64,000 nucleotides of DNA from an uncultured Oscillospiraceae bacterium. Lineage in GTDB: Bacteria > Bacillota > Clostridia > Acetivibrionales > DTU013. A program made the position numbers and the translations under genes. The notes below the pieces were generated by a model. The model was not told the origin of the DNA, did no database searches, and worked only from the letters and a program-made list of their open reading frames with translations. The DNA is taken from positions 34,919-98,918 of the forward strand of contig CAZEIH010000004.1 in NCBI GenBank assembly GCA_964512095.1, read 5' to 3'. Positions 18,437-64,000 of this stretch are shown piece after piece. Positions within the stretch are counted from its first letter, which is position 1. Each line of letters begins with the position of its first letter.

Positions 18437-18928
18437 CTACTCAAAAAGCTTCAAAAAACTGGCTGCCTTATTAATTAAGGTTTCTGTTATGCTACTATCA
18501 TCACTATTAGCTTGAGTTCTCGGAGTCATCATAACAGTATAATCGCTTCGTGGTACGTTTATATATATAATCTGGCTTTTATCAGGCATTTGCATGCCAA
18601 GTCTATTTTCTGCAACCTCCCTGACTTCATTCAGATCAGTCTTTGATTCTATCTGAACCTTTAAAAGCGAGTTTTCATTTCTTATTTCCTGGTATTCTTT
18701 TTCTTTCTGAATAAAATCATAGTTAACCTTTGTAATTATAGCATATCTGCACATTACAACAAGTCCTGCTGTTAATACGGCAATTATAGCAACAACCATT
18801 TTGAGCTTTACCTTCCTATTACTCTTATACCGTTTTTTCGCCTTTAGTACCTTATTCTCTTCGTAAACATCGTACTCAAGCTGTCTAGCTGCAGAACCAT
18901 GTACATAATCATATCTCTCATGTTTCAA
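18437..18928 (-). CDS. ftsL: FtsL-like cell-division protein (single TM helix + coiled-coil)
   Basis: Sits between rsmH and the PBP gene. It has basic N-terminus, TM helix (MVVAIIAVLTAGLVVM) and coiled-coil region. TTG start with an AGAGGTG RBS. Confidence 0.7.
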   Translation of the reverse strand: MKHERYDYVHGSAARQLEYDVYEENKVLKAKKRYKSNRKVKLKMVVAIIAVLTAGLVVMCRYAIITKVNYDFIQKEKEYQEIRNENSLLKVQIESKTDLNEVREVAENRLGMQMPDKSQIIYINVPRSDYTVMMTPRTQANSDDSSITETLINKAASFLKLFE

Positions 18929-19000
18929 TTCTATTCACCTCTTAAGTGATTTATGCCATACTGTAGGCTTAGTGTTCTTCTGTTTATTATGGTTCTTTTC

Positions 19001-19160
19001 TTTTGTGTTTTAGCTTTGCTAAAAGTGCTTTCTTTTGTGTTTTTATTTTGTGTTTTTATTTTGTGTTTTTATTTTGTGTTTTTGTTTTGCTTTTTTCTTT
19101 TGTGTTTTGTCTTTTGAGCTTTGCCTTTTGTGTTTTTCCTTGTTTTGTCTTTTGTGTTTT
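19001..19160 (-). repeat. Array of eight exact AAAACACAAAA 11-mers (sense strand), four of them in a perfect 13-bp tandem (19033-19084)
   Basis: The plus strand carries TTTTGTGTTTT starting at 19001, 19033, 19046, 19059, 19072, 19098, 19126 and 19150. The array is embedded in a degenerate T/G-rich tract spanning ~18985-19380. Confidence 0.9.
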
Positions 19161-19401
19161 GTTACTTACTTTTCTTTAGTACATTGCATTGGCCTTTTTT
19201 TCTTTAGTGTTTTGTTGCATGTCTATTCCTTTAGGCGCATTGTCAGCGCCGTAGATGCGTATTTAAGCATATTGTAAATTTTATCTTTCGTGTATCCTGC
19301 TTTTCCTAGCCTCATTTGCTTTGGTTTGGCTTTGCATTTTGTCCTTTGTACCTTAACTGCTTGTCTTATGTTTTTTGTTGCTTAATCTTTTGTAATAATT
19401 T

Positions 19402-50602: not shown

Positions 50603-50688
50603 AATGACCTTATCCCCTTTTGTAAATATAACCCCTGATTTATCTGTGTTATTTGTGTTATCTGGTTTCTTCTTCTGATAAATTTTTT

Positions 50689-51750
50689 CTACATCTTCTC
50701 TATTTCTAATAGCAGCTCATCAACTACTCTGTCCTGGGGAATTTTTCGTACAATTTCACCTTTTTTAAATAGAAGGGCTTCATTGTCTCCTCCTGCGATG
50801 CCTATATCTGCTTCTCTGGCTTCACCAGGGCCATTTACCCCACAACCCATCACCGCTACCTTTATATCCTTTTCACAGCCTTCCAGTCTTTTCTCCACTT
50901 CATTTGCTATCTTTATTAGATCTATTCTAGTTCTGCCACAGGTAGGGCATGAAACAAAGTCTACTCCTGCTTTTCGCAGCCCCAATGCTTTAAGCAGTTG
51001 GATGCCCACCCTGATTTCTTCCACCGGATCATCCGTCAATGAAACCCTTAGCGTATCTCCGATTCCCTCAGCTAGCAAGCACCCCAGACCGGCGGCGGAC
51101 TTTATGGTTCCTGCGAAAAGTGTTCCTGCCTCCGTAACGCCTATATGAAGTGCATAGTCAGCTTTCTGAGACATCTGCCTGTATGCCTCAATAGTCATAG
51201 GTACATTGGAAGCCTTTAGAGAAATGGCAATATCAAAGAAATCAAGCTCCTCAAGTATTTTTGCATGGCCAAGTGCGCTTTCCACCATACCAGCCGGCGT
51301 TACTCCGTCATACTTTGCCAGTATAGGCTTTTCAATGGATCCAGAATTAACCCCTATCCTAATGGGTATACCTCTGGGCTTCGCCATTTCAACAACCTTT
51401 TTTACATTATTAGGGCCTCCAATATTTCCTGGATTCAGCCTGATCTTATCAATTCCGTTCTCAATACATGTAAGGGCAAGCCTGTAATCAAAATGTATAT
51501 CCGCAACAAGAGCTATATTTATGGATTTCTTTATATCCCTTATTGCCTCAGCAGCATGTGCATCCAGCACTGCCACCCTTACAATATCACAGCCTGCCTC
51601 CTCCAGCCTCTTAATCTGATTGACAGTAGACCTGACATCTCTTGTGTCAGTATTTGTCATGGACTGTACTGTAATCGGGGCATCACCGCCGATACATATA
51701 TCGCCCACCCGTATCTTCCTGGATTTTTTTCTTTTCACATATTGCTCCAA
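50689..51750 (-). CDS. ispG: 4-hydroxy-3-methylbut-2-en-1-yl diphosphate synthase (MEP pathway)
   Basis: IspG/GcpE motifs ([28 protein letters not shown]). Confidence 0.95.
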
Positions 51751-51790
51751 AATTCACAACTCCCCTATGATACAATTGAATATCAAGATG

Positions 51791-53083
51791 CTATTTAACC
51801 ACTAGCTTCACTATGTCATTGTAAGCTATATATATACCCAGCAGAATAATTAAAACAAACCCAACTATTGATATATAGGATTCCTTTTCCTGGCTGAGGG
51901 GCTTGCCTCTTACCGCCTCCACTGCTATTAACACCAGTCTTCCACCGTCAAGCATTGGGAAGGGTATTAGGTTTGTAGCCCCTATTGCCACGCTTAGCAA
52001 ACCTGTTATATACATTAGATATACCAGCACATGACCTAAATCCGGAGCCTGACTTACTGTTGTAGTTATGGTACTAACCATGCCTATGGGTCCCATCATG
52101 TCAGATACATTGGCTTTGCCTGAGAAAAGCCAGCCGGGGCTGTAAAAAACACTCCTGATAATAGAATATGTAAAGGCACATGCCTGACCAAATGATTCAA
52201 TTATTCCACCTTTACCTGATGTGTATTTAAGGCCGACATCATACCATTCCTCTGACTTAACCTCCACAGGTATTAGCTTCACATTCACCTCTGCACCGTT
52301 TCTCAGCGCCTTCACTTCCAGTTTGTTCATCCCATTACTGGTGATAGCAGCTGTGATCTCATCAGCATTTGTAACTTCAACTCCATTAATCCCAACTATC
52401 CTGTCATTGGCCATCAGCCCAACTTCTTTTGCTGGCATACCGGGGGAAACATCCTGTATTATATTGGAATCCTCGTTGTTTTCCCTGCTCATCGAAATAC
52501 CTATCATGGGAACTGTACTTTCAGGATAAGTCGTAGGTGTTATTTCAGTAGATAATATTTTATTATCCCTTTCATATTCCACTTTCACAGTATCGCCCTT
52601 GGAAATGTAAAGAAATTGTATAATATCCGTGGGGATATAAGTCCTTTTTCCGTCATAAGATATGATTATGTCGCCCTTTTGGATTCCGGCAGCAACTGCA
52701 GGAGAATTAGGAGCAACATTACTAATTTCGACAGTACTATAGCCCTGGATGGCAAAAAAACCTGTAAGGAGTATAGCCGCCAAAAGCAGATTTGCCAGAG
52801 GACCTGCCAAGGTAGTTAATGCACGAGCATACTTAGGCTTGTTGTTGAAGGCGGCCTCACTGTCGGATTCCTCCTCCTCCCCTAGCATCTTCACATAAGC
52901 CATAACGGGAAATAACCTTAGGGAATACGTTGTGCCCCCTCTTTCAAAGCTGAATATTTTAGGTCCTATAAAAAGAGAAAACTCCAGAACCTTTATTCCC
53001 ATCTTCCTTGCCATGAGAAAATGCCCTAGCTCATGAACTATAACAATTATATTAAAGGCTAGTATAGCCAAGATTATATACAT
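51791..53083 (-). CDS. rseP: Site-2 zinc metalloprotease RseP/RasP (M50) with PDZ domains
   Basis: HELGHF in TM1, PDZ regions, and a C-terminal NLIPFPMLDGG motif. Confidence 0.93.
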   Translation of the reverse strand: MYIILAILAFNIIVIVHELGHFLMARKMGIKVLEFSLFIGPKIFSFERGGTTYSLRLFPVMAYVKMLGEEEESDSEAAFNNKPKYARALTTLAGPLANLLLAAILLTGFFAIQGYSTVEISNVAPNSPAVAAGIQKGDIIISYDGKRTYIPTDIIQFLYISKGDTVKVEYERDNKILSTEITPTTYPESTVPMIGISMSRENNEDSNIIQDVSPGMPAKEVGLMANDRIVGINGVEVTNADEITAAITSNGMNKLEVKALRNGAEVNVKLIPVEVKSEEWYDVGLKYTSGKGGIIESFGQACAFTYSIIRSVFYSPGWLFSGKANVSDMMGPIGMVSTITTTVSQAPDLGHVLVYLMYITGLLSVAIGATNLIPFPMLDGGRLVLIAVEAVRGKPLSQEKESYISIVGFVLIILLGIYIAYNDIVKLVVK

Positions 53084-54222
53084 ACACTACCTCCAACTAT
53101 TTCTCTTGCCCATCTATCTACTTCTATTATATCATCCAAACCTGCCCTTGTATTCACACTGTGAGCAAGCATGGCTTTTTCTATCAGCCTTGGAATATCA
53201 CAAAAGCCTATCCTACCATCAATAAAAAGTGAAACCGCAGCCTCATTTGCGCCATTCATGACCGCAGGCATTGAGCCTCCTGCAGCGAGTGCATCAAAGG
53301 CCAGTCTAAGGCACCTAAATGTGTCCATATCCGGCTCTTCGAAGGTCAGGCTTCCGCATTTTAGCAAATCCAGCTTTGAAAACCCATTAGCCTCCCTTTC
53401 TGGCCAGGTTAATGCCAGCTGGATGGGGATCCTCATATCCGGAGAACCGAGCTGTCCTATCACTGAACCATCCTTGTATTCAACCATAGAATGTATGATA
53501 CTCTGAGGGTGAACAAGTACCTTGATCCTGTCTGGCATAAAGCCAAAAAGCCATCTCGCTTCTATGAGCTCCAAGCCCTTATTCATAAGAGTTGCCGAAT
53601 CTATGGTTATCTTGCTTCCCATACTCCAGTTAGGATGCTTTAGAGCCTGTGAAACAGTTACGTTTTCAAGCTCCTTTTGTTTTTTCCCTCTGAAGGGTCC
53701 TCCTGATGCTGTCAGTATAAGCCTCTCAACATCCTGTCGCCTGTTGCCTGTAAGACACTGATAAATAGCAGAGTGCTCGCTGTCTATCGGAAAAACAGTA
53801 ACTCCATACCGCTCTGCTTCTGACATAACTATGTCGCCGGCTGTAACAAGTGTCTCCTTGTTTGCAAGAGCGATATTCTTACCCCTTCGAATAGCCTCAA
53901 CAGTTGGCACCAGTCCAGCGATTCCCACTACTGATGTTACTACTGTATCAACGCCCTCCACTGAAACAGCAGCTTTCATTCCGTCGGCTCCGCTGTAGAC
54001 CTCTATCCCTGTACCCTTTAATTTCTCTTCCAGTTGGGATACAAGTCTATAATCTGCTATTGAAACCATAAGGGGTTTAAATTCTTTAGCCTGCTGAGAA
54101 AGTAATTCAATATTCTTATTTGCGGTAAGAGCACTTACCTTGATACCTAAGTTGTTAGCAGCTTCTAGTGTTTGCACTCCAATAGAGCCGGTGGAGCCTA
54201 GTATCGCTATATTTGTTGCCAT
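53074..54222 (-). CDS. dxr: 1-deoxy-D-xylulose 5-phosphate reductoisomerase (MEP pathway)
   Basis: GSTGSIG NADPH-binding N-terminus, LANKE and DSEHSA motifs. It overlaps the rseP start by 10 nt. Confidence 0.96.
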   Translation of the reverse strand: MATNIAILGSTGSIGVQTLEAANNLGIKVSALTANKNIELLSQQAKEFKPLMVSIADYRLVSQLEEKLKGTGIEVYSGADGMKAAVSVEGVDTVVTSVVGIAGLVPTVEAIRRGKNIALANKETLVTAGDIVMSEAERYGVTVFPIDSEHSAIYQCLTGNRRQDVERLILTASGGPFRGKKQKELENVTVSQALKHPNWSMGSKITIDSATLMNKGLELIEARWLFGFMPDRIKVLVHPQSIIHSMVEYKDGSVIGQLGSPDMRIPIQLALTWPEREANGFSKLDLLKCGSLTFEEPDMDTFRCLRLAFDALAAGGSMPAVMNGANEAAVSLFIDGRIGFCDIPRLIEKAMLAHSVNTRAGLDDIIEVDRWAREIVGGSVCI

Positions 54223-54265
54223 TTTATCTCCTTTACCACATTCCTTTTAGCTCATAAATTATAAT

Positions 54266-55099
54266 CTAAAAGAATATATTTATGTAGAAATATATGGCGG
54301 GTGCAGTAAAAAGTATGCTATCCACCCTATCCAAAACCCCACCATGACCAGGCATTATGTTCCCATAATCCTTAATTCCCACTGCCCTCTTTATAACCGA
54401 TGCAGACCAGTCTCCAAGCTGGGAAATCACTCCGCAAATCAAACCGATTATTGCAAAATGCATAAGGGGCACATTCAGTACATTTTTAAAATACGCCCCA
54501 AAAGCGACCATGACAATTGTACATCCTATCACCCCACCTATACAGCCTTCAAGAGACTTTTTAGGGCTGATCTTAGGGACTATCTTAGTCTTTCCTATAG
54601 TAACACCAGTAAAATACGCAAAGGTATCAGTCGCCCAGGCACCAATAAATATCATCCATATATAAAGGTACCCATACTCCATTTGCCTTGTTGCTGTTAC
54701 AAAGGAAATAGAAAATATTACATAGGCTACCCCAAAAAGAGTAACTGCAGCATCTTTTATACCATGTCTTCCGTCTGAAAACATAATCACACAAAATAAC
54801 GTAATAAGCATGGCAAAAGTATAAACCGCTGCCGCTAACGCCACGTCTTCAGCAGCTAACAGAAACCTTCCGGGTATTATGCTCAAAAGTGCCATGTAGA
54901 CCAAAGGCAGACATGATATGTAGCCTAAGATATATATGGGTTTATACCCTCCCTTTGACAGCGCTTTATAAAATTCCTGTATTCCTATAAAGGCGAGTAT
55001 TGATATAGCAATGCCAATTGCAACACCCCCCAAGTAAACCACAACCGCCAGCAGTGCTATAGCAACCACTGCGCTTATAACCCTGGTCTTCATCCTCAT
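54266..55099 (-). CDS. cdsA: Phosphatidate cytidylyltransferase
   Basis: CdsA C-terminal signature SxxKRxxxxKDxxxxxPGHGGxxDRxD (SVIKRAVGIKDYGNIMPGHGGVLDRVD). Confidence 0.93.
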   Translation of the reverse strand: MRMKTRVISAVVAIALLAVVVYLGGVAIGIAISILAFIGIQEFYKALSKGGYKPIYILGYISCLPLVYMALLSIIPGRFLLAAEDVALAAAVYTFAMLITLFCVIMFSDGRHGIKDAAVTLFGVAYVIFSISFVTATRQMEYGYLYIWMIFIGAWATDTFAYFTGVTIGKTKIVPKISPKKSLEGCIGGVIGCTIVMVAFGAYFKNVLNVPLMHFAIIGLICGVISQLGDWSASVIKRAVGIKDYGNIMPGHGGVLDRVDSILFTAPAIYFYINIFF

Positions 55100-55842
55100 A
55101 AACCCCCATATCGCCTGCTTCTCTTCTGATATTCGCTTATTGCATCAAGCAAATCCCTCTTCGTGAAATCAGGCCATAATATATTTGAATACCAGAACTC
55201 AGAATATGATGACTGCCACAGTAAGAAATTACTTAGCCTGTTTTCTCCACTTGGCCTGATCACAAGGTCCGGGTCAGGTATGCCTTTGGTATAAAGATAC
55301 TCTGAGAATAGCCTTTCGTCAACATCCTCAGGGTTTATTTTTCCTTCCTTCGCTTCTCTTGCTATATGGGCGGCAGCTGAGGCTATTTCGCATTTTCCGC
55401 CATAGTTAAGCGCTAATACTAAGTTAATGCCTGTATTGGCCAAGGTATTATTTTTAACTCTACTTATCTCCCGTCTTATCTCCTCAGAGAGTTTATCTGT
55501 ATCGCCAATTACATGTATCCTGACGTTTTTACCTGCCAACTCCTTATCAGCATTTTTTAGAAACTCCAACAACAGCGACATCAACGAGTCTACCTCTTCC
55601 TTGGGTCGACTCCAATTCTCTGTGGAAAATGCATAAGCAGTGAGATATCTTATCCCTATTTCATTACATTCAACAACTATCCTCTTAAGGGTATTTGCAC
55701 CCTCTCTATGTCCCATACTTCTGGGCAGGCCACTTTTCTTTGCCCAACGCCCATTTCCATCCATCACAATGGCAATGTGGGTAGGAATATTGTCCTTATG
55801 CTCTATAGCATCCTTGCTTTTTTTCTTTTTCCAAAAAAACAT
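55096..55842 (-). CDS. uppS: Undecaprenyl (isoprenyl) diphosphate synthase
   Basis: HIAIVMDGNGRWA..., GIRYLTAYAFSTENW and RLSNFLLWQ motifs. Confidence 0.95.
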   Translation of the reverse strand: MFFWKKKKSKDAIEHKDNIPTHIAIVMDGNGRWAKKSGLPRSMGHREGANTLKRIVVECNEIGIRYLTAYAFSTENWSRPKEEVDSLMSLLLEFLKNADKELAGKNVRIHVIGDTDKLSEEIRREISRVKNNTLANTGINLVLALNYGGKCEIASAAAHIAREAKEGKINPEDVDERLFSEYLYTKGIPDPDLVIRPSGENRLSNFLLWQSSYSEFWYSNILWPDFTKRDLLDAISEYQKRSRRYGGL

Positions 55843-55891
55843 CTATTACCTCCGGACATACGCGGCTAATTACAGAATTAGCATATAAATA

Positions 55892-55923
55892 ACGTACAAA
55901 GCTGTATCCACAGCCTTGTACGT
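55892..55923 (-). terminator. Intrinsic terminator after the frr / small-ORF unit
   Basis: The minus-strand hairpin acgtacaaggctgt-ggat-acagctttgtacgt has a 14-bp stem with one G-U pair, followed by TATTTATAT. Confidence 0.7.
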
Positions 55924-56126
55924 CAGCTATTCAAATTGCATACTAATAACTCTACTATGTTTTGATCAGACAATTCCTGTCTGATTACTCTGGAGTCAGC
56001 GTTAAAGCCCTTGTCTCTGAGCCGTGGAGAAGCTGTCAGTGTGACCTGTATTCTCTCGAAGCCCTGAAACTTCAATAGCCTGATTGCATCCTCCAGCCTT
56101 CGGCCGGAGACATCCATCATCTGCAC
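55923..56126 (-). CDS. Small stand-alone PASTA-like domain protein (65-67 aa), hypothetical
   Basis: MDVSGRRLEDAIRLLKFQGFERIQV...VIRQE...VELLV follows the PASTA pattern (PDVxGxxxxxAxxxLxxxGF...V..Q.P...V.L.V). The GTG start overlaps the frr stop by 1 nt, with an alternative ATG at 56120. A terminator follows immediately. Confidence 0.5.
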   Translation of the reverse strand: MQMMDVSGRRLEDAIRLLKFQGFERIQVTLTASPRLRDKGFNADSRVIRQELSDQNIVELLVCNLNS

Positions 56127-56683
56127 TAGACTTCCATTATCTCCTTTTCCTTGAGCTCAACTATCTTGTCAATATCTGCTATGTATTTGTCTGTCAGCTT
56201 CTGCATATCATTCTCTGCGTCTCTCAAATCGTCCTCTGTTATCTCGCTGTTCTTCTTATCGGTTTTAAACCGTTCAATGGCCTCTCGCCTAACAGCACGA
56301 ATAGCAATCTTGGCATCCTCACCATTTCTTTTAACGCTTTTTGACAGCTCTTTTCTTCTTTCCTCGGTGAGTATAGGGAATATTAGTCTGATTACCTTTC
56401 CATCATTATTCGGGTTTATGCCAATATCAGATTTCTGAATGGCCTTTTCAATGTCTTTTAATATCTTGGACTCCCAAGGCTGGATAATTATTACCCTGGC
56501 TTCAGGTACTGAGATGCTACCCAACTGGTTTATTGGTGTTAGGGTTCCATAATAGTCCACCATTAGCTTGTCAAGAATAGCTGGATTAGCTCTTCCCGCT
56601 CTAAGGCCTGACAAATCATCCTTGAGGCCGGCTATAGCTTTATCCATCTTCTCTTCATATACTGTGTAAGCACTCTTTTCCAT
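56126..56683 (-). CDS. frr: Ribosome recycling factor
   Basis: A 185-aa protein with Frr pattern (LRAGRANPAILD..., IPEARVIIIQPWE, LTEERRKEL). Confidence 0.96.
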   Translation of the reverse strand: MEKSAYTVYEEKMDKAIAGLKDDLSGLRAGRANPAILDKLMVDYYGTLTPINQLGSISVPEARVIIIQPWESKILKDIEKAIQKSDIGINPNNDGKVIRLIFPILTEERRKELSKSVKRNGEDAKIAIRAVRREAIERFKTDKKNSEITEDDLRDAENDMQKLTDKYIADIDKIVELKEKEIMEV

Positions 56684-56707
56684 GTTAAATCCTCCCTTTG
56701 TTATTTA

Positions 56708-57412
56708 TCAGGTTAAAATAGTTCCAATATTCTCGCCCTTCAATACTCTCAAGATATTATCAGGATTACTCAGGTTAAAAACTATCAATGGAATTTTATT
56801 ATCCATACACAGAGACATAGCAGTGGAATCCATCACACCTAGTCTTCTTGACAGAGCATCTGCAAATGATATACTCTCAAACCTTACTGCATCTGGATTC
56901 GTCTTGGGATCAGCATCATAAACACCGTCCACCATAGTTGCCTTGAGAATCACGTTTGCATCGATCTCAGCTGCTCTAAGAGCTGCCGTTGTATCTGTTG
57001 TAAAATAAGGATTTCCGGTACCACATGCAAATATAACAATCCTTCTTTTCTCCAGATGCCTGACAGCCTTTCTTCTGATATACGGCTCAGCAATCTGTCT
57101 CATCTCTATGGCAGACTGAACCCTTGTTGGTATTCCTCTTGATTCAAGAGCATCCTGTAATGCCAGAGAATTAATCACCGTTGCCATCATTCCCATGTGA
57201 TCTGCGGTAGTTCTATCCATACCAATACCGCTCTTACCTCTCCAGAAATTACCGCCACCAACAACGATAGACATTTCCACGCCCATTTCGTATGCTTCTT
57301 TTATTTTGTCCGAAACGGCACCAAGTGTTTCAGTGTCTATACCAGTTTTCAAATCTCCGGCGAGAGCCTCTCCACTGAGTTTGAGTAGTACTCTTTTATA
57401 CTTTGGCATCAT
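56708..57412 (-). CDS. pyrH: UMP kinase
   Basis: [12 protein letters not shown]..., [10 protein letters not shown] and the rest of the PyrH family pattern. The start is at the ATG ATG at 57412/57409 after a GGGGTAAGGA RBS. Confidence 0.95.
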
Positions 57413-57516
57413 ATTGGTCCTTACCCCCGCTTCATAGATTAATTGTTCTACAAAAATATTAAAATTCCTGCCGCCGCAGTAAAAAGGGAACATATTTTTA
57501 TATGCTCCCTTATTAT

Positions 57517-58164
57517 TTAACCACCGATTTGCTTAGCTACTTCATCTGCAAAGTTCTCTTCTTTCTTATCCAGTCCTTCTCCTCTTTCAAACCGGGCAAA
57601 ACGTCTGATGCTTATGTTCTCACCGATTGTAGCTATCTTTTCAGTAACGAGTTGACTTACAGTCTTATCCGGATCCTTGATGAAAGGCTGATCCATTAGA
57701 CAAATTTCTTTGTAGAATTTTTCAATTCTTCCTACAAGCATCTTTTCAACTATGTTATCGGGCTTACCCTCATTTTTTGCCTGAGCCCTAAGGATGTTCT
57801 TCTCTTTTTCAACCACATCCTCAGGTACTTCTTCTCTTCTGATATATTCTGGTTTAGAGGCTGCTATCTGCATCGCTATATCCTTGACCAGCTGCTTGAA
57901 ATCTTCATTTGCAGCGGCAAAGTCAGTCTCGATATTAACTTCGACAAGTACGCCTATTCTGCCATTGCCATGTATGTATGACTCAACAATTCCTTCAGCA
58001 GCAATCCTGCCAGCCTTTTTAGCTGCAGCGGCAAGTCCTCTTTCTCTCAAAACCTCTATTGCTTTATCAATATTGCCATCCGCTTCGGTCAGGGCCTTTT
58101 TGCAATCCATCATGCCTGCACCTGTTCTCTCGCGAAGTTGTTTAACCATTTCAGCTGTAATCAT
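57517..58164 (-). CDS. tsf: Elongation factor Ts
   Basis: N-terminal UBA-like [29 protein letters not shown] precedes the ATG at 58164. Confidence 0.95.
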
Positions 58165-58277
58165 CCATATTCCTCCAAACAATAATAATCATATTATTAG
58201 CCATATATACGGCTCTTATTCCAAAACTACTATGTAATCACAGCCCGGATCAGGTGTAGAGACCGGGCATGTCTATT

Positions 58278-59045
58278 TTATTCCTGTGCTGCTTCTACCA
58301 GTGGAAGATCTTCAGTTTCATTGATACTTTCTTCCGCTTCTTCGCTTTCTTCTTCCAGCTGTTCTCCCTGACGGCCTTCTATGACAGCGTCAGCAACTTT
58401 TGATGCAATAAGCTTGACAGCCCTGATAGCATCATCATTGCCGGGAATAACATAATCAACCTCATCAGGATCACAGTTGGTATCAACTATAGCTACTACA
58501 GGTATACCAAGCTTCCTTGCTTCAAGTATTGCATTTCTTTCTTTTCTTGGGTCAACGATGAACAGCGCACCTGGCAACTTATTCATGTTCTTGATACCAC
58601 CAAGATATTTCTCCAGCTTCTCCATCTCAGCCTTGAGCTTTATGACTTCCTTCTTTGGAAGTACTTCAAACAGACCATTCTGCTCCATGTTTTCTAGCTG
58701 TTTCAGCCTGTTGATTCTCTTCTGGATAGTGTTGAAGTTGGTAAGCATACCCCCCAGCCATCTTGCATTTACAAAATACTGGCCGCTTCTTTCTGCTTCT
58801 TCCTTAATAGAATCCTGAGCCTGCTTCTTTGTGCCCACAAAAAGGACTTCGTCGCCGTTCATAGCGATTTCTCTTATGAACATATAAGCTTCTTCAACCT
58901 TTTTAACAGTTTTCTGTAGGTCAATGATGTAGATGCCGTTTCTCTCCGTAAAGATGTATTCGGCCATTTTCGGGTTCCATCTCCTGGTTTGGTGTCCAAA
59001 ATGAACGCCTGCTTCCAGAAGCTGTTTCATTGAAATAACTGACAT
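58278..59045 (-). CDS. rpsB: 30S ribosomal protein S2 (with short acidic C-terminal tail)
   Basis: [22 protein letters not shown]... An AAGGAGGA RBS precedes the ATG at 59045. Confidence 0.96.
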
Positions 59046-59300
59046 AGATATATCCTCCTTAAGTTTATACCACCACAAATTTCATCCAGGCGGACTACCC
59101 AAAGGCACTTATCCGCGTGTCAATCTGTGTGCGTATTTAATCGTAAGTTAGTATAACACACAGTCAAAAATTTATCAATAATTTATTAGTCAATAATTGG
59201 GGTGTGACACCCCCCTTGTCACATTAGCTGTACAGGCAACATTTGAGCTGCCATCTCATATACTTATACGGTGACTAATTTTTTATGGGGGGTGCCTTGA

Positions 59301-60011
59301 TTGCTGCACTTCTTATTCACCCTGTTGAATGAGGCTCTTGGCAGTATCATTTTCCAGTTGGGCTATGTCTCAAACTCTAACTCCTTTCCACAGCCACTGA
59401 CAGCAGAAGAAGAGCAAAAATACATCAAAGCATACAAAGAAGGCAGCGAAGACGCCAGAAATACACTCATAGAAAGAAATCTGCGGCTTGTTGCCCATAT
59501 AGTTAAAAAGTACAGTAACTTCAGCAGCGACAGTGATGATCTAATATCTATTGGTACTATAGGCCTTATCAAGGCCATCTCTACCTTTGACCAGTCAAAG
59601 GGGACACGACTTGCCACCTATGCTGCTCGCTGCATAGAAAATGAAATATTGATGCAGATCAGATCTACAAAAAAAATACAGAGCGAAGTATCTCTCCATG
59701 ATCCTATCGGCATAGACCGCGAGGGCAACGAAATTACATTAATTGACGTAATCGGAAATGAGACTGATTCAGTTATTGATGAGGTTGAGCTTAAAATACA
59801 AGTAAAGCGTCTATACAATAAAATGAAATCAGTACTGAAAAAACGTGAGAAAACTGTTCTGGAACTGCGCTACGGACTTCTTAATGGAACCACAAAAACC
59901 CAGCGTGAAATAGCCGGTATGCTTGGCATATCAAGATCATATGTATCGCGTATAGAAAAAAAGGCAATTAAAAAACTAAGCAAGGAGCTAGAGCCGGATA
60001 ATTGCAGATAA
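59301..60011 (+). CDS. sigK: Sporulation sigma factor SigK (pro-sigma-K, uninterrupted gene)
   Basis: The pro-sequence and processing region ...GYVSNSNSFPQPLTAEEEQKY resembles B. subtilis ...SYVKNNAFPQPLSSSEEKKY. Also present are NLRLVAHIVKKY, ATYAARCIENEILM, DVSLHDPIG and ISRSYVSRIEKKA. TTG start with a GGGGGGTG RBS. Confidence 0.88.
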   Translation: MLHFLFTLLNEALGSIIFQLGYVSNSNSFPQPLTAEEEQKYIKAYKEGSEDARNTLIERNLRLVAHIVKKYSNFSSDSDDLISIGTIGLIKAISTFDQSKGTRLATYAARCIENEILMQIRSTKKIQSEVSLHDPIGIDREGNEITLIDVIGNETDSVIDEVELKIQVKRLYNKMKSVLKKREKTVLELRYGLLNGTTKTQREIAGMLGISRSYVSRIEKKAIKKLSKELEPDNCR

Positions 60012-60019
60012 AAGTATGC

Positions 60020-60060
60020 GGGGCTTCACTCAATATCATAGTAAGATAAAGTGAAGCCCC
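60020..60060. terminator. Hairpin between convergent sigK and the HMGR-like gene (possible bidirectional terminator)
   Basis: The 10-bp stem ggggcttcac / gtgaagcccc encloses a 21-nt loop. On the plus side it is followed by actatcttattt. Confidence 0.55.
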
Positions 60061-60075
60061 ACTATCTTATTTGGC

Positions 60076-61389
60076 CTACTTGTCTTCTTCACCTCGGGCC
60101 AGTTTAACATGGGAATCGGCCATTTCATAGCCCGCTGCCTGAGCGCAGGATGTGTTTAGATCAAGTGCTGTAACCGCCGCAGCTGCTATTTCTGCAAGCC
60201 TTAGTACATTTTTATTGTCGTCGACACTAGTCCCAAATCCGCCACAGCCAATGAGTCTCAGTGCTTCCTTGGCAGTTCCGAACATTGTACCGCCTCCTAC
60301 AGTAGCAAGCTCCATGCAGGGTAGACTAACCATGAAATGAACACCTTCGTCAGTTGCATCAGCCTGTATAAAGCAGCTCGATGAGGATACGACGTGAGCC
60401 AGATCCTGACCGGTAGCAGCGTAAAAAGCAGCAATAGCATTTGCAGCATTCACATTGAAGCCCGCAATTGTTCCGCTATAGCAAGAACCCAAGTAACATT
60501 TATGGAAGACGACCTTCTCAACGCTTCTTGGATTGACACCCTTTTTGAATACTGCTTTGAGAACCTCTGTGGGAAGGAATACTTCTGTCTCAACAGATTT
60601 GCCACGTCCCTTTAGTACATTAATATGGGCTGATTTCTTATCTGTGTCAAGATTACTACTGATGGTGATTAGCTTCCAGTCAGGCATCGTTGAAAGTATA
60701 TACCGGGTGATATCGGCAGATGCCTTGGTCACACCGTTCATTCCCATAGCATCACCAGTTTTGAAGGCCATTCTTAAAAATACCTTGGTTCCAAGCTGAT
60801 ACGGCTCGATATCTTCAAGACATACAAATGGATCCTTAGATAAGCTGCCAAGATGCTTGAACAGCTCTTTGTCTGTTTTTATCCTATCGCAGAATTCCCT
60901 TGCCTTGACAATATCAGGCGCCTCTATCAAAGGAGCTCTGGTCATGCCATCATAATGTACCAATGTTCTGAGACCGCCAGCCATATTGATAGCCTTGATG
61001 CCGCGCTGGACACCAGCAACCAGTGCAGCTTCATTGGTCGCCAGTGGAATGTATACTTTTTCGTTTACATACTGTCCGTTAATCTGTATCGGGCCAGCAA
61101 TACCAAATGGGATAACCGCAGCTCCAATTTTACCTTCTATTCCCGTCAGCAATCTTTCACCGCCAGCCAAAGTGCTGTTATCTAGCCTCGTATTCTTGAT
61201 TCCAGTTAGTAAAACACCGGTTACTTCTTCTATTGAATCACAGCGGATCCTTGCAGCAGCATCGCATGCATCTGCCACCTTGAGTGGATCCGAGCCATAC
61301 ACATTGGTAAATATGGTTGTCTCAAGATGTTGGCTTTTTATTTCACCTGATAAATATTTTGATTTAATAGCCTGCAGTTGATCATTCAT
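60076..61389 (-). CDS. HMG-CoA reductase family protein, class-I-like
   Basis: Aligns by eye to class I HMGR: IPFGIAGP, PLATNEAALVAG, DGMTRAP, TGDAMGMN, TDKKSAHIN..GRGKSV, ATVGGGT and AAGYEMADSHVKL. Confidence 0.85.
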   Translation of the reverse strand: MNDQLQAIKSKYLSGEIKSQHLETTIFTNVYGSDPLKVADACDAAARIRCDSIEEVTGVLLTGIKNTRLDNSTLAGGERLLTGIEGKIGAAVIPFGIAGPIQINGQYVNEKVYIPLATNEAALVAGVQRGIKAINMAGGLRTLVHYDGMTRAPLIEAPDIVKAREFCDRIKTDKELFKHLGSLSKDPFVCLEDIEPYQLGTKVFLRMAFKTGDAMGMNGVTKASADITRYILSTMPDWKLITISSNLDTDKKSAHINVLKGRGKSVETEVFLPTEVLKAVFKKGVNPRSVEKVVFHKCYLGSCYSGTIAGFNVNAANAIAAFYAATGQDLAHVVSSSSCFIQADATDEGVHFMVSLPCMELATVGGGTMFGTAKEALRLIGCGGFGTSVDDNKNVLRLAEIAAAAVTALDLNTSCAQAAGYEMADSHVKLARGEEDK

Positions 61390-61405
61390 AGAATATGCTC
61401 CTTAA

Positions 61406-62290
61406 TTAACATTTTTGATGAAGAAGGGTACTGAGAGTCTGGGCATAGTTGCCTGCCTCAGTTATCTTCTCGAGATCTATACCTGTTTCAATACCCATTC
61501 TGTGGAACATGTCAACAAGCACTTCTGTTTGGCAGTTTCCCTTGGCACCCGGTGCATATGGGCATCCACCCAAACCTCCGGCAGCTCCGTCAAATATGGT
61601 TATTCCTGCCTGGAGTGAGGCCAGATTGTTAGCAAATTCGATGCCGAAATATTTGTGATAATGAACAGCAAGACTTGCAGTGGTCAGCTTTTCTTTTATC
61701 ATTTTGGGTATCTCATAAGCGGATGTAGGATTTGCCATACCGGTTGTATCTCCCAGAGAAATCTCATACGAGCCAAAGCTCTCCAGTGCCAGGGCTGTCT
61801 CTAGTGCCACTTCAGGAGCCATACAGCCTTCTATTGGGCATCCAAATACTGTGGCAATATATGATCTTACCTTCACGCCATTTTCCTTTGCTACTTTGTT
61901 GATTCTCTCGATTTCTTTAAGAGACTCTTCTCTGCTCATATTTAGGTTCTTTCTATTATGGCTCTGGCTAGTGCTCATAATAGTTACGACTTCATTAAGC
62001 CCAGCTTCAATAGCAAACTCAAGACCTCTCATATTGGGTATCAGTGCATTGTACGCAACTCCCTCTTTACGCCGAATTCCAGCTAATACAGCTTTTGCAT
62101 CAGCCATCTGTGGAACCCATTTGGGATGTACAAAGGAGGTCACCTCGATCCTTTGGCAGCCAGAATCTGTTAGCATATTTACAAGCTCTATCTTCTTTTC
62201 AGTGGGAATAAAGTCCGGCTCAGGCTGAAGCCCATCTCTCGGTCCAACTTCAAAAATAGATACTTGCTTTGGCCAAGTTGTTTTATCCAT
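61406..62290 (-). CDS. HMG-CoA lyase-like (DRE-TIM/HMGL family) protein
   Basis: IFEVGPRDGLQ, AVHYHKYFG (HxH metal ligands) and GGLGGCPYAPGAKGNCQTE. A GAGGA RBS precedes the ATG at 62290. Confidence 0.85.
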   Translation of the reverse strand: MDKTTWPKQVSIFEVGPRDGLQPEPDFIPTEKKIELVNMLTDSGCQRIEVTSFVHPKWVPQMADAKAVLAGIRRKEGVAYNALIPNMRGLEFAIEAGLNEVVTIMSTSQSHNRKNLNMSREESLKEIERINKVAKENGVKVRSYIATVFGCPIEGCMAPEVALETALALESFGSYEISLGDTTGMANPTSAYEIPKMIKEKLTTASLAVHYHKYFGIEFANNLASLQAGITIFDGAAGGLGGCPYAPGAKGNCQTEVLVDMFHRMGIETGIDLEKITEAGNYAQTLSTLLHQKC

Positions 62291-62323
62291 AATTATCCTC
62301 ATTTCTAGCGGTATACTATACAC

Positions 62324-63358
62324 TCATGGTATTACTATCGCACGTCCATTTATGTTGCTAAACTCATCTAAAGACTTCTGATATTCATCCATGGGAAGAA
62401 CCATTCCAACATATGCAGACAGGTTAACTTTGCCGCTGTTGACAAGTCTCATCATCTGTTCCCAGGTCTTATACATATGCCTGCCGAAAATACCTGTTAT
62501 CTTCAATTCTCGGTAAACAACACGATACATATAGTTACTGATGGTAAGCTCTCCCCCCACCATTCCAACATGGACAAGGGTACCGGCTGTTCTCAGCGCA
62601 TCAATTGCCTGGTTTATAACCCTGTTGTTCCCTGTAAAGTCTACTATACAGTCAACTCCAACACCGCCGGTTATTTCCTTTGCGGTTTTTACAAGCTCCT
62701 CCCTCATACCATTCAATGCAATGTCTGCGCCTACCTTCAGACTATATTCAAGCCTGTCGTCATTCACATCCAATGAAATAACCTTGACAGCCCCAAGCAA
62801 TTTTGCCAGCTCGCAAGCCATCAACCCAATTGTACCAACTCCTAGTATGGCAACGATTTTTCCGCTGGGTTCAGCCTTCTGTAAAGCATGTAGCGCCGTT
62901 CCAAGTGGTTCGAGTAGAGACATCTCCTGAAAATTTGCATCATCCTCAAGCTTTATTCCCGACACCTCCGGAAGCCTGATATATTCAGCAAAGCATCCAT
63001 CTATATTCCTTCCCAACACTCCCATGTTGTTTGTGCAAATATGTTGGTTATCTGTTCTGCATTCATAGCAGTAACCACATGGAATGTGAGTTTCACCTGC
63101 AACACGGTCCCCAGGCTTGAAGTTTTTCACGAGACTTCCAACCGCAGTTACCTCTCCTGAAAATTCATGACCAAGGGTAAACGGCAAGCTATAGTTAGAA
63201 GACGCCACTAGTGGAGACCATTCAAACACCTCAACATCAGACCTACACATGGCTGCCGCCTTTACTTTTACAAGAAGATCGTGTTCACCGATTTCAGGTA
63301 TGGGTATATCAACTATCTCTGCTCCCTCTCCATGTTTTGTTTTCCTTAGTGCCTTCAT
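62324..63358 (-). CDS. Zinc-dependent medium-chain alcohol/polyol dehydrogenase (threonine/sorbitol dehydrogenase-like)
   Basis: Catalytic Zn context AAAMCRSDVEV and GHEFSGEV; structural Zn cysteines CGYCYECRTDNQHIC; Rossmann motif ILGVGTIGL. A GGGGAGA RBS precedes the ATG at 63358. Confidence 0.85.
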   Translation of the reverse strand: MKALRKTKHGEGAEIVDIPIPEIGEHDLLVKVKAAAMCRSDVEVFEWSPLVASSNYSLPFTLGHEFSGEVTAVGSLVKNFKPGDRVAGETHIPCGYCYECRTDNQHICTNNMGVLGRNIDGCFAEYIRLPEVSGIKLEDDANFQEMSLLEPLGTALHALQKAEPSGKIVAILGVGTIGLMACELAKLLGAVKVISLDVNDDRLEYSLKVGADIALNGMREELVKTAKEITGGVGVDCIVDFTGNNRVINQAIDALRTAGTLVHVGMVGGELTISNYMYRVVYRELKITGIFGRHMYKTWEQMMRLVNSGKVNLSAYVGMVLPMDEYQKSLDEFSNINGRAIVIP

Positions 63359-63433
63359 TTTTTTATTCTCCCCATGAATTCGATATAACGCAACAGTTCG
63401 GAAGGAACTGCAGCGTGTCAATGATATAAAATC

Positions 63434-64000
63434 CTATTTATTTCTTGTTAAGGTTTCGTCTGGAGCAAATCCGAGCTTGTCATAATGTGATGATCTGGTT
63501 ACAATATCATCATCCAGTTGCATTTTTGCAAACTTGATGATTTCCTCTGCCCTGTTTCTGGGAATAACCAATACACCGTCATCATCAGCACAAATAATGT
63601 CGCCAGGATTTACAAGAACCCCTGCACAGTTGATTGGAATATTGGTTCCACCGAAGGTAACTCTTCCGTAAGCATGGGTGAAGGTCCTCTGGGTACAGAA
63701 AACATTAGCATTTTCAAGATTAGTTTCATATGAGTCTCTGCAGCCCCCATCTACAACCGCGCCTGAAATTCCCCTTATCATGGTGTTCATTGCAATTTCA
63801 GAACCCCATACTCCACCACGAATACCTTCCATATCAATAACCACTACCATATCCTTCGCACTTTCCTCTGTAATGCCATCCACAAACCTGTAAATATCGT
63901 TGCAGCCCTTGCCAAGCTCATCGCGCCATTCATCTACAGTTTTACACTCCTTAACGCCGTCCTGCTTGGGCAACAGCTTAACAGTGTAAGCAAAACCCTT
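63434..64000 (-). CDS. RraA-family / class II aldolase-like protein (5' end outside window)
   Basis: The RraA/HMG-aldolase pattern reads ...GGVWGSEIAMNTMIRGISGAVVDGGCRDSYE...PGDIICADDDGVLVIP. The frame stays open to nt 64000, and the listed start at 63973 is only a TTG. Confidence 0.75.
   Translation of the reverse strand, partial: KGFAYTVKLLPKQDGVKECKTVDEWRDELGKGCNDIYRFVDGITEESAKDMVVVIDMEGIRGGVWGSEIAMNTMIRGISGAVVDGGCRDSYETNLENANVFCTQRTFTHAYGRVTFGGTNIPINCAGVLVNPGDIICADDDGVLVIPRNRAEEIIKFAKMQLDDDIVTRSSHYDKLGFAPDETLTRNK

Follow-up and report, generated by a model that had tools for sequence, protein, structure and literature searches.

The 64,000-nucleotide stretch of DNA analysed here (the window) ends in part of an operon that, with roughly an even chance, encodes a so far undescribed way of breaking down a plant cell-wall sugar or sugar acid that is polyhydroxylated and mevalonate-like. 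Copies of HMG-CoA reductase (HMGR) and HMG-CoA lyase (HMGL) have probably been re-tooled in this operon for splitting an unusual plant-derived sugar acid. Judging from context, the leading candidate substrates are branched-chain, tertiary-alcohol sugars of rhamnogalacturonan-II and apiogalacturonan, namely L-aceric acid and D-apiose or the acid derived from it. The first-pass annotation had offered mevalonate catabolism or an uncharacterised pathway; the latter is the better description, and the module matches no characterised pathway found in the literature searched. If the proposal is true, an NAD-linked, CoA-dependent pathway that oxidises and then cleaves a sugar would apparently be new to the literature.

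Structure of the operon

Four co-directional genes occupy the minus strand in the order RraA-like (3' part, 63434..64000), Zn-ADH (62324..63358), HMGL-like (61406..62290) and HMGR-like (60076..61389), as initially annotated, with intergenic gaps of 75, 33 and 16 nt and a Shine-Dalgarno-like motif before every ATG. HMM searches confirmed all the families proposed for them (RraA-like, ADH_N plus ADH_zinc_N, HMGL-like and HMG-CoA_red). The minus-strand stem-loop thought to close the unit (60020..60060), probably an intrinsic terminator, folds strongly (-30 kcal/mol, z = -5.46; none of 200 shuffled sequences folds equally well), and a short U-rich run, ACUUUUAU, comes after it. The stem-loop is located between the operon end and the convergent sigK gene (59301-60011, plus strand), and was missed by a simple terminator scan because its loop is longer than the limit of that scan.

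Contig L001 matches window positions 58178-64000 at 100% identity (5.8 kb overlap) and extends the operon upstream. Directly upstream of the RraA-like gene are genes for a PCC/DUF296 protein and for a CUT1 system made up of a sugar-binding protein and two permeases, which provide the transporter that had been expected past nt 64000. The full operon order is PCC/DUF296, CUT1 binding protein, two permeases, RraA-like, Zn-ADH, HMGL-like and HMGR-like. The operon is one for carbohydrate utilisation, served by a CUT1 ABC transporter, and the four window genes form its distal half. A pair encoding an AP_endonuc_2 protein and a 2-hydroxyacid dehydrogenase is divergent from the operon on L001.

The reductase paralogue

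HMGR-like (437 aa) is a class-I-derived member of the HMG-CoA reductase family (Pfam PF00368, 294 bits). Its initial description as class-I-like is borne out by 288 bits against the class I model TIGR00533 compared with 27 bits against the class II model TIGR00532 (cut-off 260), and its best solved structure is the archaeal class I enzyme 6hr7 (E = 1e-66). It shares fold and domain with canonical class I HMGRs (archaeal/eukaryotic, EC 1.1.1.34) at about 40% identity, including the catalytic Glu, Lys, Asp and His and most CoA contacts, but unlike them it falls under the TIGR00533 equivalog cut-off of 441.8 and occurs in MEP-pathway bacteria.

The catalytic residues E120, K251, D329 and H427 (human E559, K691, D767 and H866) are all kept. 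The first-pass annotation was right that the catalytic set is intact, but had placed the Asp in 'TGDAMGMN', the D653 motif that binds NADPH; the catalytic Asp is D329 in 'ATGQDLAH' (human D767). The set stands despite this misassignment, because both Asp motifs are present. The cis-loop S-x5-DKK, DAMGMN and GGGT motifs are also retained, and throughout the clade the carboxylate binders S684, K692 and K735 and the CoA binders R568, K722 and S865 are kept.

Other positions differ from canonical class I enzymes and are invariant in the clade. S626/R627, listed as NADPH-binding residues of human HMG-CoA reductase and contacting the NADPH 2'-phosphate, are replaced by D/P (D186/P187), and these two changes suggest a preference for NAD+. 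In the HMG pocket, L853 is replaced by T (T413), and hydrophobic residues near it are replaced by polar ones; H752 is N (N314) and L857 is Q (Q417). From these residues, HMGR-like is predicted to be an NAD-linked, CoA-dependent oxidoreductase whose substrate is a polar analogue of HMG or mevalonate.

In the phylogenetic placement proposed at the outset, HMGR-like falls in a bacterial clade of its own, monophyletic in 100 of 100 NJ bootstraps, whose members share 59-100% identity with one another and no more than 57% with sequences outside. Hosts include Bacillota, Spirochaetota, Planctomycetota, Desulfuromonadaceae and one alphaproteobacterial MAG. The tight coupling of reductase and lyase expected from the window is obligatory, the lyase gene being directly upstream of the reductase in 43/43 loci, none of which contains HMG-CoA synthase or mevalonate kinase. 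Canonical class I genes differ in this respect, as the clade reductase is always beside the lyase and never beside HMG-CoA synthase or thiolase. The nearest outgroup reductase, from Iainarchaeum (49% identity), is biosynthetic in gene context: its locus consists of reductase, HMG-CoA synthase, a 111-aa ORF without Pfam match, and thiolase.

The lyase and the accessory enzymes

HMGL-like (294 aa) is an HMG-CoA lyase-family (DRE-TIM) paralogue that scores 160 bits against Pfam HMGL-like and 363 bits against NF004283, the NCBIfam HMG-CoA lyase subfamily (cut-off 246), and matches the HMG-CoA lyase structure 1ydo (E = 7.5e-85). Equivalents of the catalytic and metal-binding residues R41, D42, E72, H233, H235, C266 and N275 are all kept, and the clade-specific changes are polar (I206T, A241E, D236K/R/Q). 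Its predicted reaction is the splitting of the reductase's acyl-CoA product, which would give a C2 acyl-CoA and a carbonyl compound.

Zn-ADH (344 aa) is a Tdh-like medium-chain Zn-dependent dehydrogenase. Its nearest equivalog models, those of L-threonine 3-dehydrogenase, give 307 bits, which falls short of the 380 and 458 set as their cut-offs, and among solved structures the archaeal L-threonine dehydrogenases come nearest (E = 1e-67). The translation shows the Cys/His motifs of the catalytic and structural Zn sites and a VISLD (Asp) motif of NAD type.

The RraA-like class II aldolase/decarboxylase scores 82 bits (window fragment) or 99 bits (full-length) against PF03737; the complete gene encodes 234-235 aa and would reach about nt 64138. 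Its best structure is the HMG/CHA aldolase 3noj, and the R123-D124 pair is conserved as 'CRD'. HMG/CHA aldolases (LigK/PcmE, protocatechuate 4,5-cleavage) have the same fold and catalytic pair and likewise cleave beside a carboxylate-bearing tertiary alcohol, but the RraA-like protein is far under the cut-offs of the LigK equivalog models and aromatic-degradation neighbours are absent.

Gene neighbourhoods in other genomes

Neighbours were counted in 27 well-flanked, non-redundant loci of the lyase–reductase core. The four-gene unit holds across genomes for the lyase–reductase pair; Zn-ADH, the third frequent member, is present in 17/27 loci and an SDR in 5/27, whereas RraA is regarded as accessory rather than core because only 9/27 have it. 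PCC occurs in 14/27 loci, the CUT1 binding protein in 10/27, 2-hydroxyacid dehydrogenase in 9/27, AP_endonuc_2 in 7/27 (plus 5 of a second type), glycerate kinase in 5/27 and transketolase in 4/27. GH140 apiosidase-like genes are found in 8/27 loci, often within the operon, and GH2 genes in 7/27. Regulators near the core are of the GntR, YesMN and CdaR (Diacid_rec) types; an NAD_binding_2 dehydrogenase and a LarA-like 2-hydroxyacid racemase also adjoin it. Other lineages have TRAP, TTT and Liv-type transporters in place of CUT1, indicating a carboxylate substrate.

Comparison with characterised apiose proteins gave little resemblance. The GH140-like proteins are distant from the one characterised apiosidase, to which they had no phmmer match; neighbouring CUT2 binding proteins did not resemble the binding protein of the E. 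coli apiose cluster, and the transketolases of these loci share no more than 34-39% identity with AptA/AptB.

Proposed catabolic route

The substrate would be imported, in other genomes after release by GH140-like or GH2 glycosidases. The reductase paralogue would then oxidise its aldehyde or primary alcohol end with NAD+ and CoA to an acyl-CoA thioester, a reversal of the HMGR reaction, and the lyase paralogue would break the C2-C3 bond beside the 3-hydroxyl. The C2 product might be glycolyl- or acetyl-CoA, yielding ATP via phosphotransacylase and kinase; candidates for the small carbonyl product are hydroxypyruvate, tartronate semialdehyde, dihydroxyacetone and 3-hydroxy-2-oxobutanoate, which would be handled by the dehydrogenases, AP_endonuc_2 isomerase, glycerate kinase or transketolase encoded nearby. 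The ADH, RraA and PCC proteins may have further roles in the route. An acid such as aceric acid or apionate would suit the carboxylate transporters better than apiose, which is neutral, but the GH140 genes point to apiose, and no single candidate substrate explains every accessory gene (RraA, PCC, ADH, glycerate kinase).

Alternative explanations

It is conceivable, though doubtful, that the same module oxidises and cleaves an unbranched sugar acid, imported in its free form. Examples would be a tetronate or a pentonate, the latter being isosteric with mevalonate; the products would be glycolyl-CoA and tartronate semialdehyde or glyoxylate, and then glycerate and phosphoglycerate. The carboxylate-specific TRAP and TTT transporters and the Liv-type ones fit this scheme, as do the CdaR-type regulator, the NAD_binding_2 and 2-hydroxyacid dehydrogenases, the racemase, the isomerase and glycerate kinase; the retained carboxylate binders are also compatible with it, and the gained polar residues could hold extra hydroxyls. 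However, the two enzyme families are adapted to substrates with a tertiary 3-hydroxyl, HMGL being poor on secondary alcohols, and the co-transcribed GH140-like and GH2 glycosidases and the oligosaccharide-type CUT1 transporter would be left unexplained.

Classical mevalonate/HMG catabolism by a class I analogue of Pseudomonas mevalonii mvaAB is unlikely. Mevalonate, CoA and 2 NAD+ would give HMG-CoA, whose cleavage yields acetoacetate along with acetyl-CoA; redox balance would come from reduction of acetoacetate by the ADH or SDR. The adjacency of the two genes and the D/P change, which suits an NAD-linked oxidative enzyme, are consistent with this chemistry, and genuine HMG-CoA might still be the substrate because the lyase passes its subfamily cut-off and the reductase keeps its catalytic and most HMG-contact residues, including S684, K692 and K735. 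Even so, the chemistry initially favoured does not suit a sugar-uptake locus with CUT1, where 2-hydroxyacid dehydrogenase and, in loci elsewhere, glycosidases, glycerate kinase and transketolase would have no role; L853 and its neighbours are invariantly polar, and the lyase has changes of its own. In anaerobic habitats where plant material is degraded, free mevalonate is not known to be an important substrate. Still less credible is a biosynthetic or reductive role, in which the reductase would feed mevalonate to a partial or hybrid isoprenoid pathway, or the lyase homologue would condense and the reductase would make a branched polyol or secondary metabolite. All characterised class I HMGRs known to us are biosynthetic NADPH enzymes, and DRE-TIM enzymes include Claisen condensing synthases. 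The organism nevertheless has dxr (53074-54222) and ispG (50689-51750), both matched at equivalog level in agreement with its earlier assignment to the MEP pathway, and isoprenoid synthesis is an unlikely role for the module. The NADPH 2'-phosphate pair is lost, synthase and mevalonate kinase are missing from the clade loci while the outgroup has synthase and thiolase, and the genes nearby encode uptake systems, glycosidases and regulators of catabolism (GntR, YesMN-type), not biosynthetic functions.

Relation to known pathways

D-apiose is reportedly degraded through ApsI, AplK and AptAB (transketolase) or by routes with ApnO, OiaK and a RuBisCO-like protein. The proposed module resembles these pathways in having apiosidase-family glycosidases nearby and split transketolase genes in 4 loci, and both would break the backbone of a branched sugar at the carbon that bears the tertiary alcohol. 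In the module, the cleavage would instead be CoA-dependent and oxidative, by HMGR/HMGL paralogues, and we know of no report of such cleavage for apiose; neither a RuBisCO-like protein nor an FGGY kinase resembling AplK from the apiose cluster of E. coli is among the annotated neighbours.

The mvaAB system of P. mevalonii likewise has adjacent reductase and lyase genes that serve catabolism, and would share the logic of the predicted module, NAD-linked oxidation of an alcohol or aldehyde to a CoA thioester followed by C-C cleavage to an acyl-CoA and a carbonyl. The mvaAB reductase is of class II, whereas that of the module is of class I and archaeal-derived; the module also differs in its lyase-to-reductase gene order, in its pocket residues, and in its context of sugar/sugar-acid uptake and glycosidases rather than mevalonate use.

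Organization of the operon at the window edge

The four minus-strand ORFs described in the first-pass annotation are present exactly as claimed, and profile searches assign their families: an RraA-like protein whose gene runs past the end of the window (63434–64000; PF03737, 82 bits for the fragment), a Zn-dependent medium-chain dehydrogenase (Zn-ADH; 62324–63358), an HMG-CoA lyase (HMGL) homologue (61406–62290) and an HMG-CoA reductase (HMGR) homologue (60076–61389). Their tight spacing is likewise evident, with intergenic gaps of 75, 33 and 16 nt and a ribosome-binding motif at each. The hairpin noted 3' of the reductase gene is real (−30 kcal/mol, z = −5.5) and stands between the operon and sigK, which is transcribed towards it. 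The MEP-pathway marker genes dxr (53074–54222) and ispG (50689–51750) both reach equivalog level.

The upstream part of the operon is contained in contig L001, which is 100% identical to window positions 58178–64000 over 5,823 bp and runs 7.4 kb further upstream. The gene order there is PCC/DUF296, a CUT1-type solute-binding protein, two permeases, RraA-like, Zn-ADH, lyase and reductase, and the divergent genes encode AP_endonuc_2 (a xylose-isomerase-like TIM barrel) and a D-2-hydroxyacid dehydrogenase. The transporter expected beyond nt 64000 is thus found, as a binding protein and two permeases upstream of the RraA-like gene. Since CUT1-type uptake genes precede them, the four window genes make up the catabolic part at the end of an operon for carbohydrate uptake.

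A bacterial clade within the class I HMGR family

The reductase is of the class I sequence type, as had been proposed from its motifs: PF00368 scores 294 bits, the class I model TIGR00533 scores 288.2 bits versus 27.3 bits for the class II model TIGR00532, and class I enzymes account for all of the best-matching solved structures. The class I equivalog level is not reached (TIGR00533 cut-off, 441.8 bits), and a class II degradative enzyme of the mvaA type is rejected (TIGR00532 cut-off, 259.95 bits).

Relatives sharing at least 66% identity with the window reductase form more than 120 separate clusters at 90% identity, spread over Bacillota, Spirochaetota, Planctomycetota and others; organisms in culture that carry such a gene include Ruminiclostridium cellobioparum DSM 1351, Marispirochaeta aestuarii, Caldicoprobacter guelmensis and Mahella. 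NCBI names these proteins 'hydroxymethylglutaryl-CoA reductase (NADPH)' or, in several cases, 'hypothetical protein'. A neighbor-joining tree placed 41 members alongside enzymes from archaea, plants and human, and all 100 of 100 bootstraps recovered the lineage as monophyletic; members share 59–100% identity with one another and at most 57% with sequences outside. Its sister sequences are one from Thermodesulfobacteriota and one from Iainarchaeum, and DPANN archaea come next. The reductase thus belongs to a distinct clade within the class I HMGR fold family, unlike an ordinary class I enzyme, and this clade is a bacterial branch that derives from archaeal class I HMGR.

Active-site residues of the reductase

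The clade was compared with 34 canonical class I sequences in concordant MAFFT and HMMER alignments (canonical residues in human numbering). Catalytic E559, K691, D767 and H866 correspond to E120, K251, D329 and H427, which are invariant in the clade. The claim that all four catalytic residues are intact therefore stands, with the Asp reassigned: it is D329 in 'GQD', and the 'DAMGMN' stretch originally chosen is the NADPH-binding motif. Contacts to the HMG carboxylate and hydroxyl (R590, S684, D690, K692, K735 and N755) and to CoA (R568, K722 and S865) are also kept.

The NADPH-binding residues include S626 and R627, and the HMG pocket is formed by ten residues, S684, D690, K691, K692, D767, E559, K735, N755, L853 and H866 (PMC7503714). 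Nine of the ten are conserved in the clade; the exception, L853, is Leu in all 34 canonical sequences and is replaced by invariant T413. Close to the pocket, H752 and L857 are replaced by N314 and Q417. At S626/R627, canonical enzymes carry Ser/Thr-Arg and the clade carries invariant Asp186/Pro187. Ser626 and Arg627 presumably contact the NADPH 2'-phosphate, and an acidic residue facing the 2'-phosphate position is the usual sign of NAD(H) preference; we infer from D186/P187 that the reductase prefers NAD(H). The enzyme does not qualify as an EC 1.1.1.34 equivalog: its score lies under the curated threshold, its NADPH site and its gene context are not those of such an enzyme, and one pocket residue differs.

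The lyase partner

The lyase is assigned to the HMG-CoA lyase family (DRE-TIM metallolyases, PRK05692 subfamily) by NF004283, at 363 bits versus a cut-off of 246. The catalytic and metal residues R41, D42, E72, H233, H235, C266 and N275 are kept in essentially all 39 clade members compared, one sequence being gapped at three of these seven positions. The clade-specific changes I206T, A241E and D236K/R/Q suggest an altered acyl pocket. Taken together, kept catalysis and altered cofactor or pocket residues in reductase and lyase point to the same chemistry, with NAD+ as cofactor, on a more polar analogue of HMG-CoA; this predicted analogue would still bear a carboxylate or an equivalent polar group.

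A scan of one genome per species yielded 43 usable loci of the lyase–reductase type. The mvaAB-like pairing of adjacent genes seen in the window is general, as the lyase gene lies directly upstream of the reductase gene in all 43 loci having upstream sequence; seeming exceptions are artefacts of stop-to-stop ORF extension. In a Desulfuromonadaceae MAG (locus L044, 7536–9604), two tandem HMGL-family genes, whose products have 43% and 64% identity to the lyase of the window, lie upstream of the reductase gene.

Genes for HMG-CoA synthase, thiolase and mevalonate kinase are absent around the reductase in all 43 loci. The closest outgroup locus, from an Iainarchaeum MAG (L039, 9962–13885; 49% identity), has the archaeal biosynthetic arrangement of reductase, HMG-CoA synthase, a 111-aa ORF with no Pfam match and thiolase. 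Its reductase carries the clade signatures N119, A121, Q128 and N314, and lacks D186/P187, T413 and Q417. With a synthase as partner in L039 and a lyase in the clade, the change of partner falls at the boundary of the clade, as do the Asp/Pro and L853T substitutions. A biosynthetic role of the window reductase is rejected as improbable on gene context and cofactor-site changes.

Gene neighborhoods

Neighbors were counted in a non-redundant set of 27 loci, each flanked by 5 kb or more upstream and 3 kb or more downstream. Zn-ADH occurs in 17 loci and PCC/DUF296, also among the most conserved partners of the pair, in 14; a CUT1 binding protein is present in 10 (a second type in three more), GntR regulators, 2-hydroxyacid dehydrogenases and RraA-like proteins in nine each, GH140 'apiosidase-like' proteins (PF13204) in eight, AP_endonuc_2 in seven (a second type in five more), divergent GH2 in seven, glycerate kinase in five, SDR in five (directly after the reductase gene in spirochaetes) and transketolase in four. 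Co-occurrence of the four window genes is strict for the lyase–reductase pair and only partial for Zn-ADH and the RraA-like gene. In several phyla, the module is embedded in loci for sugar and sugar-acid utilization.

The operon itself often includes the GH140-like gene, as in locus L030 (response regulator, GH140, binding protein, two permeases, RraA, PCC, ADH, lyase, reductase); a Marispirochaeta locus (L088) has two GH140 genes, and in Caldicoprobacter and another Bacillota contig GH140 adjoins a split transketolase beside the module. GH140-like proteins with DUF5060 and Apiosidase domains are encoded in Bacillota and Spirochaetota at L015:16611–18386, L082:13041–14804, L087:1–1786 and L088:715–2490 and 6016–7809. 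In phmmer searches of solved structures they matched only 4n0r, an uncharacterized glycosidase, and they are distant from the characterized Bacteroides apiosidase. Similar searches with the CUT1 binding protein and GH2 gave only distant, non-diagnostic matches. Pfam annotation of large and adjacent unclustered neighbors revealed assorted glycosidases and transporters, and no RG-II-specific family such as GH127.

In other lineages the place of CUT1 is taken by TRAP (L046), Liv-type (L085 and L029) and, very probably, TTT transporters (L044, judged by ORF sizes). Downstream in L044, three ORFs of about 160, 504 and 331 aa fit the sizes expected for TctB, TctA and TctC, and TctA and TctC Pfam matches occur among the annotated neighbor proteins. 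TRAP and TTT systems are carboxylate-specific.

Accessory proteins

No NCBIfam equivalog matched any accessory protein. The Zn-ADH is closest to L-threonine 3-dehydrogenases and scores below their cut-offs (NF003808, 307.5 versus 380 bits; TIGR00692, 306.6 versus 458 bits); with its Zn motifs present, it is a predicted Tdh-like paralogue, and it has an Asp-type NAD motif (VISLD). In a comparison with loci L004–L014, the window ADH is 74–79% identical to ADHs of the 'GH2-ADH-lyase-reductase' locus type and only 51–56% identical to the ADH in loci of the R. cellobioparum type, whereas other genes of the latter loci are 66–84% identical to those of the window. This pattern suggests either two ADH paralogue types or recombination between locus types. 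In two Marispirochaeta genomes, the Zn-ADH gene that follows the reductase gene is truncated or split in two ORFs (L081:11316–11576 and L088:11318–12228) and is apparently a pseudogene. As L088 also has an SDR gene upstream of the lyase gene, the two dehydrogenase types may be interchangeable in the module. In two other loci (L017:11648–14261 and L018:1699–4320), genes for an Fe-dependent alcohol dehydrogenase and a LarA-like protein (lactate-racemase family) directly follow the reductase gene, which hints at 2-hydroxy-acid stereo-inversion and aldehyde-reduction steps in some lineages.

The full-length RraA-like protein scores 99 bits with PF03737, and its R-D pair aligns with catalytic Arg123-Asp124 of 3noj. 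Assignment as an HMG/CHA aldolase equivalog (LigK/PcmE) is rejected (NF006731, 93.5 versus 179 bits; TIGR02798, 82 versus 304.5 bits).

The small PCC/DUF296 protein (PF03479) is encoded at L001:3427–3864, upstream of the window, and at L083:11344–11784, L087:3984–4412 and L088:7842–8270 and 18859–19287. A literature search on bacterial PCC/DUF296 function gave only papers on plant AT-hook (AHL) proteins, and a published description of that function seems to be lacking. We take its fold class to resemble alpha-acetolactate decarboxylase; such a fold would suit a 2-hydroxy-3-oxo-acid intermediate.

Putative pathway and substrate

The module is probably a reductase–lyase catabolic pair, which resembles Pseudomonas mevalonii mvaAB in the adjacency of the two genes and in its predicted working. 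It does not belong to the mvaAB system, as it has a class I reductase with an altered pocket and stands in a context of sugars and sugar acids. As mvaAB is, to our knowledge, the sole characterized reductase-plus-lyase system, by analogy the reductase paralogue should run oxidatively, converting a substrate with an aldehyde or primary alcohol end, CoA and NAD+ to an acyl-CoA. The lyase would cut C2–C3 beside the 3-hydroxyl, yielding a carbonyl compound together with an acyl-CoA of two carbons. The recurrence of AP_endonuc_2, 2-hydroxyacid dehydrogenase, glycerate kinase and transketolase suggests that this carbonyl product is probably a C3 acid, e.g., hydroxypyruvate or tartronate semialdehyde, en route to phosphoglycerate; hydroxypyruvate is an accepted transketolase donor. 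Depending on the substrate, dihydroxyacetone or 3-hydroxy-2-oxobutanoate might be formed instead.

A literature search found no published description of this lyase–reductase module, in line with the first-pass alternative of an uncharacterized pathway. Four D-apiose pathways have reportedly been published. The split transketolase beside the module, present in four of the 27 loci, is 39% and 34% identical to E. coli AptA and AptB (BLASTP against the E. coli SE15 apiose cluster), values that are uninformative on orthology, and neither an FGGY kinase (AplK-type) nor a RuBisCO-like protein occurs among the annotated neighbors of the module loci; the module therefore does not appear to match the published apiose pathways. 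CUT2 binding proteins next to the Marispirochaeta locus have only 23–25% identity to the apiose-cluster binding protein of E. coli.

Several substrates can be weighed in a rough split. The association with GH140 and transketolase favors an apiose-derived compound, which is the likeliest single choice, though well below even odds; D-apiose overlays well on mevaldehyde, with an aldehyde, CHOH and then a tertiary C-OH bearing CH2OH. The carboxylate evidence favors L-aceric acid, in which the tertiary alcohol carries a carboxylate and which has a threonine-like CH3-CHOH-C(X)-COOH end; this end would suit a Tdh-like enzyme. L-aceric acid, which occurs glycosidically bound, is a less probable candidate than an apiose-derived compound. 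The probability of another sugar acid lies between the two, and unbranched pentonates or tetronates are a serious alternative. The earlier proposal is partly supported: the module is probably catabolic and uncharacterized, while the mevalonate-to-HMG-CoA chemistry probably does not apply in view of the sugar context and altered pocket: true mevalonate or HMG would fit the mvaAB-like gene pair, but sugar transporters, glycosidases and glycerate kinase in the context argue against it and make it improbable. Pathways drawn on paper, starting from apiose, apionate, isoapionate, aceric acid, Dha, pentonates or isosaccharinic acids, each left some conserved accessory gene without a use. We therefore name no substrate, and the module could have a mundane one.

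With some reservation, and at less than even confidence, the lyase–reductase pair with a dehydrogenase and PCC can be read as a new CoA-dependent route for a branched-chain plant cell-wall sugar. On this branched-sugar reading, bacteria would have acquired an archaeal-type class I HMGR, which then changed its cofactor to NAD+ and was adapted to turn a sugar aldehyde into a thioester, and an HMG-CoA lyase paralogue would cut at the tertiary alcohol to yield glycolyl-CoA and a C3/C4 keto compound. The route would then count as a fifth D-apiose pathway, unrelated in mechanism to the others, or as the first one to break down L-aceric acid, for whose catabolic fate a literature search found no account. 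Bacteroides thetaiotaomicron growing on RG-II releases an AceA-Rha-Api trisaccharide (bioRxiv 10.64898/2026.03.13.711244), a possible cross-feeding substrate.

Implications

HMG-CoA reductase is among the most studied enzymes in biology, and the one role known to us for its class I form is to catalyze, with NADPH, the committed step in making isoprenoids and sterols. A catabolic class I HMGR clade, with predicted NAD linkage, is probably present here and is unexpected: with kept catalysis, lost NADPH-type residues and a lyase locked to it in sugar loci, this widespread clade would be the first case of the class I scaffold serving in the catabolism of something other than mevalonate. If true, this would fill a gap in the use of rare pectin sugars (RG-II, apiogalacturonan) by anaerobes of digesters, sediments and termite or animal guts. 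The current annotation as the NADPH enzyme can mislead metabolic reconstructions into assuming a partial mevalonate pathway. The idea can be tested directly in the cultured hosts R. cellobioparum DSM 1351, C. guelmensis and M. aestuarii.

Insertion site

In the window, the catabolic operon and sigK directly adjoin a conserved housekeeping row on the minus strand (46283–59078), composed of rpsB, tsf, pyrH, frr, uppS, cdsA, dxr, rseP and ispG, then a 1439-aa ORF that is probably polC. Loci of the R. cellobioparum type (L008 and L014) also have rpsB downstream of the module, at a distance of a few genes, so the insertion site is shared among relatives.
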